NCBI GenBank assembly: GCA_015061665.1
Contig: SUWC01000001.1
Coordinates: 35,737-99,736 of the forward strand
Reading direction: 5' to 3'
Source: Lentisphaerota bacterium
GTDB taxonomy: Bacteria > Verrucomicrobiota > Kiritimatiellia > RFP12 > UBA1067
Length of the DNA stretch: 64,000 nucleotides
The stretch's first letter is position 1. Each line of letters begins with the position of its first letter. Shown piece by piece: positions 13,870 to 17,609 of this stretch. The translations under genes were made by a program, and so were the position numbers. The notes under the pieces are model-generated. The model did no database searches. It was not told the DNA's origin and saw only the letters and a program-made list of their open reading frames with translations.

Positions 13870-14931
13870 ATGACGCGGATAGCGCTTGATGCGATGGGGG
13901 GCGACTATGCCCCCAAGCAAGTCGTTGTCGGTGCGGTTGAGGCCGCAGTCGGCATTCCTGACGTGAAGATATACCTTGTCGGTCGCAAAGACGCGATTGA
14001 CAAGGTAGTTGCGGCCCTCGCAAAGGACCGCAAAGCCCTTTACTCCTCTGCCGTCTCAAAGGGACTTCTTGAGGTTGTCGACGCGCCGGACCAGGTCGAG
14101 ATGGATGAAGTCCCTGTCGATGCGGTCCGCAGGAAGAAGGATTGCTCCATCAATGTGGCGATGCGCCTCGTCAAGGATGGCACGGCGGATGTTTTCGTCT
14201 CCGCAGGCAATTCCGGCGCCGTCGCGACGAGCGCGATCCTCAATCTCGGCCGCATCAAGGGCGTGAAGCGCCCCGCGATCGCGATGGTCCTCCCAACGAA
14301 GAAGCCCAGCCGTCCGCTGCTTCTTCTTGACGCAGGCGCGAACATGGACTGCCATCCGGAATGGCTCGTCCAGTTCGCGATCATGGGCAACGTCTATTCG
14401 AAGACCGTCCTGCGCCGCGAAAGCCCTGCCGTCGGCCTCCTTTCGATCGGAACGGAGGACTGCAAGGGCAACGAGCTTATCCACGAGACGTATCCCCTCC
14501 TCAAGAACACCGACGGAATCAACTTCGTAGGCAACATAGAGGGGCACGACATCTGCGGCGGCGAGATCGACGTCGCGGTTGCGGACGGTTTCGTCGGCAA
14601 CGTGGTCCTTAAGACCGTCGAGTCCGTCGCGCACGCAATCGGCGGCTGGCTGAAGACGGAGCTCAAGAAGAGCCTCTTCCGCAAGATATGCGCGCTGATG
14701 CTCAAGGGCGCGTTCAATTCGCTGAAGAAGCAGATGGACCCCGAGGTCTACGGAGGCGCTCCGCTTCTGGGCGTCCCTGGCAATGTCATAATCACGCACG
14801 GCAATTCAACCCACAAGGCAATATTCTACGCCGTCAAAGCCGGCGTCGCTGCGGCGACCAACGACGTGTCGGGCCTTATCGAGAAATCGATCGCCGAACA
14901 CGCCGAAAAGGCGCAAGAAACGCAGCAATGA
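13870..14931 (+). CDS. plsX: Phosphate acyltransferase PlsX
   Basis: [25 protein letters not shown]; 353 aa; conserved position after rpmF. Confidence 0.9.
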
Positions 14932-17609
14932 GCGAATACAATTTCTCTGCCATCGAAAAGAAGTGGCAGAAGTTCTGGCTTGAGAACAAGACGTTCAAGA
15001 CGACGGACGGGGCTTCTGACAACAGGCCCAAGTTCTACTGCCTTGACATGTTCCCGTATCCCTCAGGCGCCGGACTCCATGTCGGCCACCCCGAGGGCTA
15101 CACGGCGACGGACATCCTTTGCCGCTACAAGCGCATGAAGGGCTTCAACGTCCTTCACCCAATGGGATGGGACGCCTTCGGCCTTCCCGCCGAGCAGTAC
15201 GCCGTCGAGACGGGCACTCATCCCGCGATTACGACGAAGAAGAACGTAGACCGCTTCCGCGAGCAGATCCGCTCGCTCGGCTTTTCATACGACTGGGACC
15301 GCGAGGTCAATACGACGGACCCGAAGTACTACCGCTGGACCCAGTGGATTTTCGAACAGCTCTACAAGAAGGGCCTCGCGTACGTCGCAGAAGTGCCTGT
15401 CAACTGGTGCCCTGCACTCGGTACGGTGCTCGCCAACGAAGAGGTGATCGACGGACGCAGCGAGCGCGGCAACCATCCGGTAATCCGCAGGCCCATGCGC
15501 CAGTGGATGCTCAAGATCACCGAGTACGCCGAACGCCTCCTCAAGGACCTCGACACGCTCGACTGGCCCGAAGGCGTCAAGGAGATGCAGCGCAACTGGA
15601 TCGGCAAGTCCACGGGTGCTCTGGTGGACTTTGGTGTGGAGAAGGACGGAACGGACGGGCGCTCTGGCGCGCCCGCACCCCAGCCCAAGGATGTTATTAC
15701 TGTCTACACCACCCGCTGCGACACGCTCTTCGGCGCGACGTACATGGTGCTTTCGCCGGAGCACGCGCTTGTCGCGAAGTGGCTTGAGGACGGCACGATC
15801 AAAAATGCTGACGCCGTCAGGGAGTACCAGAAGAAGGCCGCGTCCAAGAGCGACCTCGAGCGCACCGAGCTCAACAAGGAGAAGACGGGCGTGCGGCTCG
15901 AGGGCGTCGCTGGCGTAAATCCCGTGAACGGCGACAAACTGCCGATCTTCATCTCCGACTACGTACTCGCAAGCTACGGAACGGGCGCGATTATGGCAGT
16001 TCCTGCGCACGACGAGCGCGACTTCGACTTCGCCAAGGTGTTCAACCTCCCAATCTACCAGGTCGTGGCGAATGGAACGGACGGTGCCTCTGGCGGCGCT
16101 GAACCCCAGTCCAAGGATGGAAGAGTTCCTTATACCGGTTCCGAGGCGTTCACCGACATCGCTACTGGCGTGATGGTCAACTCGGGGTTCCTGAACGGAC
16201 TTTCCGTCGAGGCTGCGCGCCCAGCCATGATCAAGTGGCTTGAGGAAAAGGGCGTCGGCAAGGCAAAGACGCAGTACAAGCTTCGCGACTGGCTCTTTTC
16301 GCGCCAGCGCTACTGGGGCGAGCCGTTCCCCGTGATCCACTGGGAGGACGGCACGCAGTCGCTTGTCCCCGAGGAGGACCTTCCGCTTACCCTGCCTGAA
16401 CTCGTGGACTACAAGCCGACGGGCACGGGCGAGCCGCCGCTTGCGAAGGCGACCGGCTGGGTGAACGTCGTCGACCCGAAGACCGGCAGGAAGGGCGTGC
16501 GCGAGACGAACACGATGCCTCAGTGGGCCGGCAGCTGCTGGTACTACCTCAGGTACATCGACCCGACGAACGACAAGTGCTTCGCCGACCCCGAGCTTCT
16601 GAAGAAGTGGCTCCCCGTCGATCTCTACGTCGGCGGCGCGGAACATGCGGTTCTTCACCTCCTCTACGCGCGTTTCTGGCACAAGGTCCTCTTCGACCTC
16701 GGGCTCGTCCCGACTCCGGAGCCGTTCCAGCGCCTCGTCAACCAGGGAATGATCCTAGGAATGGCGTACAAGAACCGCCGCGGCGTGCTTATCCCGATGG
16801 ACCACGTGGAGTGGAAGGACGGCAAACCGTTCGGTCCGGTCAACTGGGGAATGGAAGGCGCGGACCTGGCGGAGCTCGAGGAGCTCACGGAGTTCCCTGC
16901 CAAGATGTCGAAGTCGCTCAAGAACGTCGTCAATCCCGACGACGTGATACGCGACTACGGCGCCGATTCGCTGCGCCTCTACGAGATGTTCATGGGTCCG
17001 CTCCAGGTCGTCAAGCCCTGGCAGACGAAGGGCGTCGAAGGCGTTCACCGCTTCCTCAAGCGCGCCAACAGGCTCGTGACCGAAACACAGATAGTGGATC
17101 GGGCTATGACGAAGGCCGAGGCAAAGAGCCTGGCGGCAATGGTGAAGAAGGTCGGCGACGACCTTGAGGCGCTAGCCTTCAACACGGGCATCTCCGCCAT
17201 GATGGTTTTCATCAACGAAGCGGAAGACTTCGCCAAAGGAACGGACGGGGCCTCTGGCGGCCCCGCACCCTTGCCCAGGGAATTTCTCGAAACCTTTGTG
17301 CTCTGTCTCGCTCCCTTCGCGCCGCATCTCGGCGAGGAGCTTTGGCAGTTCCTCGGACACGACAAGTCGCTCGCCTACGAGCCCTGGCCGGCGTACGACG
17401 CCTCCGCTCTCGTCGAGGACGAGGTTGAGATACCGGTGCAGGTTCTCGGCAAGCTGCGCGGACGCGTCAAGGTGTCCGTAAACGCGACTCCTGCCGACAT
17501 GGAGTCCGCCGCAAAGGCGAATCCCGACGTCGCCAAGTTCCTCGAGGGCAAGACGATCGTCAAGGTCATCGCCGTGCCGAAGCGCATGGTGAACTTCGTG
17601 GTCCGCTGA
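14928..17609 (+). CDS. leuS: Leucyl-tRNA synthetase
   Basis: [17 protein letters not shown] start, HIGH-type motif [17 protein letters not shown] present ([12 protein letters not shown]). ATGA overlap with plsX. The track ORF is extended 5' to 14688. Confidence 0.95.
15645..15692 (+). repeat. leuS in-frame 45-nt repeat, copy A (encodes [16 protein letters not shown])
   Basis: GGAACGGACGGGCGCTCTGGCGCGCCCGCACCCCAGCCCAAGGA. About 80-85% identical to copies at 16074-16122 and 17238-17280; a partial copy lies at 15001-15030. Confidence 0.75.
16074..16122 (+). repeat. leuS in-frame repeat, copy B (encodes [16 protein letters not shown])
   Basis: GGAACGGACGGTGCCTCTGGCGGCGCTGAACCCCAGTCCAAGGA. Confidence 0.75.
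17238..17280 (+). repeat. leuS in-frame repeat, copy C (encodes [16 protein letters not shown])
   Basis: GGAACGGACGGGGCCTCTGGCGGCCCCGCACCCTTGCCCAGGGA. Confidence 0.75.

Follow-up and report, generated by a model that had tools for sequence, protein, structure and literature searches.

Why a leucine--tRNA ligase gene should carry several in-frame copies of nearly the same short DNA segment was the question raised by a 64,000-nucleotide (nt) stretch of a Lentisphaerota bacterium (contig SUWC01000001.1 of assembly GCA_015061665.1, positions 35,737 to 99,736), referred to below as the window. The gene, leuS, was found to contain three copies and a remnant of a 44-nt unit. With a probability of roughly 0.8, these repeats are copies of a dispersed, non-autonomous family of the repetitive extragenic palindrome (REP) type, which would be filtered where they fall in coding loops, would be turned over there, and would likely be mobilised by an enzyme combining an HUH-Y1 and a DprA-like domain. 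Loci and proteins gathered for the comparison are cited by their L and P numbers, respectively.

Results

Copies of a 44-nt unit in leuS

Direct repeats of about 50 nt (74-80% identical) were detected by a repeat finder at 15642-15691, 16068-16117 and 17232-17281, and the conserved unit within them comprised 44 nt (Table 1). In the 64-kb window, a 22-nt core pattern with up to three mismatches matched at exactly the three leuS copies, where 0.01 matches were expected, and three matches were reached in 0 of 100 shuffles; for a covariance model built from 66 copies from elsewhere, the next best match in the window had an E value of 0.8. The mean pairwise nucleotide identity of the three copies was 0.807, compared to 0.660 ± 0.032 for their peptides back-translated with the codon usage of the window. 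Codon bias for a Gly/Pro-rich peptide, named in the earlier note as an outcome that could overturn its interpretation, did not reproduce the similarity, as none of 20,000 such simulations reached the observed value. The copies also had rare codons in common (TCT, TTG, GGG and GCA, which make up 5%, 2%, 8% and 9% of the codons of their respective amino acids). Among the roughly 25 genes of the window, leuS was the sole synthetase gene and also the sole repeat host; annotation of the 64 kb revealed no other aminoacyl-tRNA synthetase (aaRS) gene and no transposase gene or gene resembling a REP-associated tyrosine transposase (RAYT).

The leuS product had the make-up characteristic of the ligase: HIGH-type (HVGH) and KMSKS motifs marked its class I catalytic core, and CP1 editing and anticodon-binding domains were both present. 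It aligned over its full length with LeuRS of T. thermophilus (1h3n; E=4.8e-214), and its closest database relatives were annotated as leucine--tRNA ligases of Kiritimatiellae, its relatives carrying the Pfam domains tRNA-synt_1, tRNA-synt_1_2 and Anticodon_1. A tRNA-Leu(GAG) gene was located at 13033-13117, 1.8 kb upstream of leuS on the same strand.

All element copies in this gene are read in the leuS frame. The earlier note had described three in-frame copies as insertions into loops; they were recovered a few bases away from the positions it gave, and sites B, C and D coincided with gaps of 11, 13 and 5 residues, respectively, relative to the Thermus enzyme. The AlphaFold model of the window LeuRS was poor because the alignment was shallow (mean predicted local distance difference test score (pLDDT) of 55.8, N-terminal 195 residues unmodelled) and was used for local statements on sites B, C and D only. 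In this model, pLDDT was below 50 at residues 243-252 (site B) and 772-779 (site D), the latter with confident helices on either side. DNA folding retained the hairpin at site B (stem 15656-15662 with 15669-15675, CGGGCGC/GCGCCCG; loop TCTGGC at 15663-15668) and at site D (stem 17246-17252 with 17259-17265, CGGGGCC/GGCCCCG; loop 17253-17258), whereas the stem at site C had decayed (CGGTGCC/GGCGCTG) and its hairpin was lost. The partial fourth copy described in the earlier note proved to be real. At site A, ACGGACGGGGCTTCTG at 15003-15018 is a 16-nt match to the unit, and a codon alignment with locus L069 showed that an in-frame internal deletion of 24 nt took out the 3' stem arm and the tail. 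Full site A copies were present in L014, L016, L062 and L069 in the same type of alignment, and 35-aa versions of this loop occurred in at least 12 relatives.

Table 1 Host gene and element copies, with positions counted from the first nucleotide of the window.
Feature	Position	Strand	Description	Evidence
leuS, leucine--tRNA ligase (host gene)	14928..17609	+	893 aa, intact	Open reading frame (ORF) list
Site A remnant	15000..15020	+	Unit positions 0-17 and final 2 nt of a 44-nt copy; encodes TTDGASD	
Site B copy	15648..15691	+	At entry to CP1 editing domain	Covariance model, E=4.5e-16
Site C copy	16074..16117	+	Inside editing domain	Covariance model, E=8.6e-13
Site D copy	17238..17281	+	Loop of anticodon-binding domain	Covariance model, E=4.1e-15

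Anatomy of the unit

The unit consists of an 8-nt 5' tail (GGAACGGA), a 7-bp G+C stem enclosing the loop TCTGGC, and a 16-nt 3' tail (MACCCYNGCCCANGGA), and it is free of stop codons in all six frames. In the aligned copies, the information content was about 0 at position -1, rose at position 0 and fell back to about 0 at +44, the flanking positions (-12 to -1 and +44 to +59) holding roughly 0-0.3 bits. Of 63 copies, 55 had a length of 44 nt and seven of 43 nt. The bases immediately 5' of the stem read CGGA on the unit strand and, on the opposite one, GGTG or GGTT. Target-site duplications, sought at k=1-7, did not exceed the shuffled expectation, and neither terminal inverted repeats nor a conserved flank motif was apparent in the aligned copies.

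The two stem positions that the search pattern had left free co-varied (GG/CC, GC/GC, CG/CG, GA/TC, AG/CT and others). Pairing was observed in 97.6% of the stem cells, compared to 86% in shuffles and 27-61% with slid partners, and 43 cells showed a double change where nine were expected, a number reached in 0 of 500 shuffles. A perfect 7-bp stem was present in 103 of 133 distinct copies. The folding energy was not exceptional for such a G+C-rich composition (z between -0.3 and -1.1); it is covariation, and not energy, that speaks for the hairpin. No Rfam family matched at gathering or E-value thresholds. A reading of the 7-bp stem and the 3' ACCC tail as a microhelix or tRNA mimic was dropped, as the unit has no NCCA end and its tail is variable.

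Dispersal across genomes

One genome per GTDB species was scanned with a 20-base pattern in which the stem positions were free. This identified 64 genome loci, nearly all in metagenome-assembled genomes (MAGs) of gut and rumen Kiritimatiellae, often on several contigs of the same MAG and with up to six strict-pattern loci per MAG. A further 77 loci with the pattern were obtained from the JGI metagenome collection, and the covariance model found 89 copies in 443 kb of fetched loci. The repeat is a dispersed REP-like family of gut and rumen Kiritimatiellae and is not specific to leuS.

Viral contigs gave only four matches, located in a phage-type integrase, a tail-fibre-like gene and upstream regions, and we saw no sign of phage as the source of the repeat. 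On contigs classed as viral (L152, an IMG/VR contig, and L099/L151), the 44-mer was found in-frame in a phage-type tyrosine integrase and, in a third reading frame, in the signal-like N-terminal region of a tail-fibre-like protein. Kiritimatiellae-type aaRS genes with the 44-mer also appeared on several contigs in two bins with other labels, CAVGMG01 (L003, L010, L035 and L046; labelled Alistipes onderdonkii) and CAVKTW01 (L027 and L042; labelled Methanomethylophilaceae), both of which are probably mislabelled or contaminated.

Reading frames and host genes

Of the 71 copies in the genome set, approximately 59 were located inside real coding sequence; for the metagenome set, the figure was approximately 55 of 85. 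The genuinely coding copies use two of the six frames, sense frame 0 and one antisense frame, both with a Gly/Pro/Ser/Thr/Ala content of about 0.7 and devoid of Arg, Trp and Cys. Copies in other frames were found just upstream of start codons, namely those of pnp, oadA, POR and a primase-like gene. Between a gene ending in MNG plus stop codon and oadA, an intergenic copy occupied the same position in at least 12 assemblies (L018, L033, L034, L037, L041, L045, L100, L108, L109, L114, L136 and L141); its stem was always intact but belonged to different subfamilies, and it could act as an intercistronic RNA hairpin.

Six synthetases (LeuS, IleS, ArgS, MetS, ValS and AlaS, assigned by NCBIfam and Pfam) were among the roughly twenty host families. 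The other hosts comprised LysA, a B12-radical-SAM protein, an MFS transporter, GT2, polyprenyl synthase, ClpX, a TMEM260-like protein, an RfbB-like dehydratase, AccA, Lnt, PriA, a DHDPS-like protein, a flavoprotein and a phage-type integrase. By our estimate, synthetases are a small share of a bacterial gene set; in the genome set they accounted for about 60 of the 79 coding copies, and in the metagenome set for about 39 of all 85. As the search pattern had been derived from leuS, only the copies that the model found and the pattern missed were tested for bias; 19 of these 20 fell in aaRS ORFs, which cover 38% of the loci concerned (P=1.5e-7).

Presence, absence and turnover at the LeuS loops

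We compared 120 LeuS proteins of 860-966 aa that were 80-97% identical to the query. A 15-residue unit, GTDG[ARG]SG[GAS]P[AE]P[LQ]PK[DE], was present in some and absent from others at loops A (around residue 29), B (240), C (385) and D (772), and it occurred once at a fifth loop, E, near residue 645. Many relatives, such as a group of 868-aa LeuS proteins, carried no unit at all, and presence was patchy on a LeuS tree from which the loops had been left out (core divergence of up to 11%). Between the window leuS and that of its closest relative, L065, 1.3% of positions differed outside the element sites and 19.5% within them, corresponding to a roughly 15-fold faster turnover of the element sites than of the rest of the gene. 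Recent spread at the DNA level, which the earlier note had preferred to an ancient protein motif, is borne out by both comparisons. As for the route, a frame-preserving mini-insertion element, one of its two suggestions, stands, whereas gene conversion within leuS alone does not, since the repeat is a genome-wide family found in many genes and intergenic DNA and in both orientations.

The alleles differed in sequence as well as in occupancy. At site B, L065 carried another stem subfamily at the same place; at site C, orthologous copies had intact stems in three Watson-Crick variants (L014/L043/L057, L069 and L072); at site D, other lineages had an antisense copy of a sister subfamily or a short AGGLPKE version. 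Both orientations were found at site A (GTDG...PKD in L014/L069 and, from the reverse strand, GSGTPESPSV in L025), likewise in IleS and at LeuS sites B and D. Derived forms included in-frame internal deletions, partial tandem copies and one head-to-head pair (L064), and in L022, L028 and L070 a second hairpin element of about 46 nt was inserted precisely within the 44-mer loop. Where orthologous sites had identical flanks, stem variants consisted of different Watson-Crick pairs and partly co-segregated with tail variants, a pattern more in line with replacement by other copies of the family than with compensatory mutation in place. Filled loops were 8-15 residues longer than empty ones, in contrast to DNA uptake sequences and uptake signal sequences, which build up through substitutions and leave the host length unchanged.

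The same loops also received other sequences. The nested 46-nt family (TCACCCC...GGGGGATACGGC; peptides SPLLGHPLRGQPAAGGYG and SPRLVAPSGSLARGGYG) was located at 5687-5783 in L022, at 1846-1942 in L028 and at leuS site C of L070, and it was also found within another hairpin-type insert (AETQR...SLCASAPLRE) at LeuS site C of P0009 and P0091. A tandem heptanucleotide, (CACGAGC)n, occurred in-frame and was read in all three phases as HEPRATSHEPR; it was present at leuS site B of L069, in L104 (Lnt, apolipoprotein N-acyltransferase) and in the LeuS proteins P0019, P0020, P0023, P0049 and P0054, where it occupies a loop that elsewhere hosts the 44-mer. Further recurrent inserts in LeuS loops B-E were GTTGTTETTG..SRESRRSR, EKLKSCKVEKLN..STFQPFNLST, Ser-rich runs and VDRVGRVDRV repeats. 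Loops B-E of LeuS are general sinks for short repeats in this clade.

A candidate mobilising enzyme

The HUH motif of Y1 transposases was scanned across 1.1 Mb of gathered sequence and led to two homologous ORFs, at 1671-2810 (minus strand) of L119 and 2174-3571 (plus strand) of L145, both loci being in the dataset solely as carriers of the 44-mer. Each ORF carries MPDHVHFLL and R-x-Y-I-x-L-N-P-A-R. A database search returned 850 relatives with neither a Pfam domain nor a name, and the motifs MPDHvHFL (HUH) and RrYIrLNPAR (Tyr) were invariant across the family (set P0121-P0240; loci L119, L145 and L154-L163). The NCBIfam model REP_Tyr_transpos (NF047646) was matched by 39 of 40 members and was the sole family matched (best E=1.2e-7), while the enzyme profile gave nothing significant against PDB sequences, DprA reaching a sequence similarity of E ~0.8. 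The AlphaFold model of the enzyme was confident (pLDDT 89.4). Its N-terminal domain matched the TnpA proteins of IS608, ISDra2 and IS200 (Foldseek E ~2e-5, probability 1.00) as well as the E. coli RAYT-REP complex 4er8 (root-mean-square deviation of 2.8 Å), and its C-terminal half superposed on DprA of H. pylori and S. pneumoniae (E of 3e-5 to 3e-3). DprA (DNA processing protein A) is a Rossmann-like protein of natural transformation that binds single-stranded DNA (ssDNA). The modelled fold indicates that the enzyme is a divergent RAYT relative with an extra DprA-like domain, an assignment based on the sub-cutoff NCBIfam matches and the fold search only. A limited literature check found no description of DprA fused to an HUH-Y1 domain.

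This enzyme family is physically tied to the repeat. In loci that had been fetched via the protein, all 15 non-redundant matches of the covariance model fell within the gene itself or no more than about 100 nt from its stop codon, the flanks of about 8 kb per enzyme locus being free of them. An inverted copy followed the stop codon at four of seven distinct loci (L119, L157/L159, L161 and L163). Between the HUH and Tyr motifs, the family has a hypervariable insert region containing several other repeat-derived peptides (e.g. QGFGGAAPVPSP and AKQSHPAGVRGLQ). At several of the enzyme loci, the gene adjoins giant surface-protein genes and an FGE-sulfatase gene.

Other features of the window

Positions 1-6000 of the window had a G+C content of 42-46%, compared to about 62% in the remainder, and hold dnaA (1233-2681, minus strand) and mnmG/gidA (3041-5281, minus strand), the latter unusually long at 746 aa. 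A cluster of tRNA-Arg, Met, Pro and Cys genes follows at 6531-6933. This part is an origin region of odd composition or else the product of a chimeric join in the assembly. Further downstream, two giant ORFs are adjacent on the plus strand (37104-48497, 3,797 aa; 48934-61494, 4,186 aa), for which Pfam gave only Gly_rich_2 (first ORF) and Laminin_G_3 together with TSP3_bac (second ORF).

Discussion

Proposed explanation and its weak points

In the explanation that we favour, copies of the 44-mer would land in DNA without target duplication. A copy in coding sequence would survive if the net length change preserves the frame, if the unit is read in one of the two Gly/Pro/Ser/Thr/Ala-rich frames and if the site is a tolerant surface loop, mostly a loop of a large aaRS. 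Turnover would then proceed by swap or conversion with variants of other subfamilies, by nested insertion into the hairpin loop, by partial tandem duplication and by in-frame internal deletion. The most likely mobiliser would be an HUH-Y1 ssDNA enzyme of RAYT/IS200-IS605 type that carries a fused DprA-like domain for ssDNA binding. By analogy with the established chemistry of the IS200/IS605 and RAYT family (PMC6006769, PMC3479197), it would recognise the hairpin in ssDNA and cut and rejoin the strand, and the candidate enzyme found here would in this way move the repeat. The concentration of copies in synthetases is probably explained by selection rather than by targeting. It would reflect the tolerance of large modular enzymes together with protection against sloppy deletion in essential genes; this account of the bias is the weakest point of the explanation, as other large essential proteins were not seen as hosts.

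Several observations weigh against this explanation. Tolerance alone does not obviously account for the absence of other large essential proteins among the hosts. The enzyme scored about 25 bits on NF047646, compared to a curated RAYT cutoff of 80, and had no match above threshold in Pfam. Its link to the repeat is purely associative: enzyme and repeat were seen in one genome for two contigs only (L119 and L145), the downstream copy was missing at two to three enzyme loci, and no upstream copy was detected at the enzyme loci, the gene thus lacking the two-sided flanking by inverted repeats of canonical REPtrons. Between filled and empty leuS sites, the differences were 39, 39 and 24 nt instead of a clean 44 or 45, which does not demonstrate a simple cut-and-paste; with such differences, and with loops that carry other inserts, the exact insertion junctions in leuS cannot be defined. 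In addition, the short site D allele resembles part of the unit, and templated replacement or gene conversion may be the main route of site change. Finally, all sequences came from MAG or metagenome assemblies in which some taxon labels of bins are clearly wrong, the copy counts include orthologous copies from different species that are not independent events, and the seed pattern was derived from leuS.

Alternative explanations

An alternative explanation is that the hairpin is a selected cis-acting RNA or DNA structure, such as a regulator or RNase site or an mRNA stabiliser, that marks a synthetase regulon. Orthologous copies with different Watson-Crick stems in otherwise identical flanks (L037/L092 compared to L108; leuS site C) are what such selection would leave behind, and the aaRS bias, the retention of the intergenic copy upstream of oadA and the copies in the 5' untranslated regions (UTRs) of pnp and POR point in the same direction. 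However, stem and tail variants go together as subfamilies, in line with replacement, and copies occur in mRNAs in both orientations, so that the sequences of loop and tail differ. Copies are also dispensable between near-identical strains, the site C copy of the window has lost its stem, and neither Rfam nor the folding energy offered a match or an unusual value. We consider a selected structure of this kind unlikely.

The unit might instead be selected as a protein module, i.e. a Gly/Pro-rich surface tag (for example a docking peptide of the PxxP type) that the synthetases of this lineage have acquired repeatedly, with the DNA similarity as a by-product of recent copying. This would agree with the concentration of copies in six aaRS families, with the use of just two of six frames, both of them proline-rich, and with the presence of several copies per enzyme in the same loops across many lineages. 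It is difficult to reconcile with the two orientations, which yield unrelated peptides at the same loops, with the many close relatives that carry none (the 868-aa LeuS group), and with copies in intergenic DNA, in 5' UTRs or in genes of other kinds, among them those for a phage integrase, MFS, GT2 and Lnt. Moreover, the stem co-varies despite an amino-acid cost (ASGGP compared to RSGAP), and the peptide decays along with the stem or is deleted in frame. A selected tag is, in our view, quite improbable as the origin of the repeats.

Two further explanations are refuted and retain next to no probability. An origin and spread solely within leuS, by duplication or gene conversion between loops, agrees with the confinement of the copies to leuS in the 64-kb window but not with a 44-mer that recurs with identical edges in many genomes, both in intergenic DNA and in 20 or more other gene families. 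Convergence by codon bias on low-complexity Gly/Pro-rich loops, to be considered in a genome with about 0.8-0.9 G+C at third codon positions and for peptides rich in Gly, Pro and Ala, is contradicted by the back-translation simulations, the common rare codons, the sharp unit edges and the co-varying stem positions.

It is improbable that repeat and enzyme, rather than being just a tolerated parasite, form a domesticated ssDNA editing system that preferentially and continually remodels the surface loops of large synthetases through insertion, swapping, nesting and deletion of 15-residue cassettes. If true, such a system would amount to targeted diversification or tagging of LeuRS, IleRS, ValRS, MetRS, ArgRS and AlaRS, which might serve escape from synthetase-directed toxins, phage factors or gut inhibitors, or the assembly of synthetases via proline-rich tags.

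Significance

Intragenic REPs and Rickettsia palindromic elements (RPEs) have so far been curiosities with no known mobiliser. Distinctive of the present family are that most of its REP-like copies are translated, that selection on two of six frames is visible and that copies are concentrated in synthetases. A previously unannotated HUH-Y1/DprA-like enzyme family, together with a 44-nt ssDNA substrate, would provide a concrete system for the movement of protein-coding palindromes. The copies also represent a natural experiment on the tolerance of essential enzymes to loop insertions. In practical terms, the inserts add to length variation and give rise to false 'motifs' in marker genes on which MAG phylogeny and annotation draw.

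Comparison with known systems

REPs are by definition extragenic. Like the REP/RAYT systems of E. coli, Pseudomonas and Stenotrophomonas (REPINs and REPtrons), the 44-mer family is a short G+C-rich stem-loop with many copies per genome, has subfamilies with alternative complementary stems, shows neither terminal inverted repeats nor target-site duplications, and is associated with a single-copy-looking candidate HUH-Y1 gene whose predicted fold and motifs resemble those of RAYTs (background on REP/RAYT, including the definition by a GTAG or CGTC tag, is given in PMC3733652; see also PMC6006769). Unlike REPs, its copies are mostly intragenic and translated, and no GTAG or CGTC tag lies beside the stem; unlike in REPINs, nearly all copies are single and not inverted doublets. 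The candidate enzyme falls below the cutoff of the RAYT model and has a DprA-like C-terminal domain, and its gene has internal and downstream copies instead of the two flanking inverted repeats of a REPtron. The 44-mer system would work like REP/RAYT but fails several defining features of canonical REPs.

In fold, the enzyme also resembles TnpA of the IS200/IS605 family (IS608, ISDra2), which transposes single strands by 'peel and paste': the N-terminal fold and the HUH and Tyr motifs are alike, and the hairpin and the lack of a target-site duplication agree with that chemistry. In contrast to IS200/IS605, no transposase-carrying insertion sequence with these ends was seen, the unit has a single hairpin where those elements have left and right ends that are distinct, and no tetra- or pentanucleotide target is conserved beside it. 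Two related models were rejected, namely a miniature transposable element with inverted repeats (MITE), given the lack of a target-site duplication, of ends that are inverted repeats and of a flank motif, and an IS605-type palindrome-associated transposable element (IS605-PATE), given the single hairpin, where PATEs have distinct subterminal hairpins at their two ends, and the lack of the fixed tetra- or pentanucleotide 3' of which PATEs insert.

Intragenic REPs and RPEs are prior art for palindromes in coding sequence. Di Nocera et al. 2013 (PMC3733652) described REPs located in ORFs, with the largest numbers in Opitutus terrae (Verrucomicrobia) and Rickettsia conorii; these were single or grouped, some genes were hit twice, linkers or loops of modular proteins were suggested as their location, and a host bias towards DNA-repair genes was suggested, with synthetases sporadic. 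The 44-mers resemble them in being units wholly contained in ORFs of known proteins and in having a host from the Planctomycetes-Verrucomicrobia-Chlamydiae superphylum, and synthetases are hosts in both cases, with just a few such genes in the earlier set. The units of Di Nocera et al. encode 7-8 aa (about 22-25 nt), carry a GTAG or CGTC tag and, as intragenic copies, make up a minority of each family, whereas those described here are 44 nt long (15 aa) and mostly coding, with six aaRS families dominating the hosts.

RPEs are the 'protein-coding palindromic repeats' of Rickettsia (Ogata et al. 2000, 2002), as summarised in PMC10969869. As outlined in that summary, they are selfish palindromes inserted in-frame in many unrelated housekeeping genes, with a conserved peptide that is compatible with host fold and function, and in these respects the 44-mer is alike; RPEs of the RPE-1 type are about 100-150 bp long, compared to 44 nt here, and occur in obligate intracellular alpha-proteobacteria. 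The 44-mer was found in-frame in at least 20 gene families, with translation predicted from sequence, and is an analogue of RPEs, not a member. To our knowledge, RPEs have no cognate transposase, and we know of no report of a synthetase bias or of the use of two orientations at the same loops for them. Overall, the 44-mer family differs from this prior art in its size, its lack of a tag, its predominantly coding location, its use of two orientations, its concentration in synthetases and the architecture of its associated enzyme.

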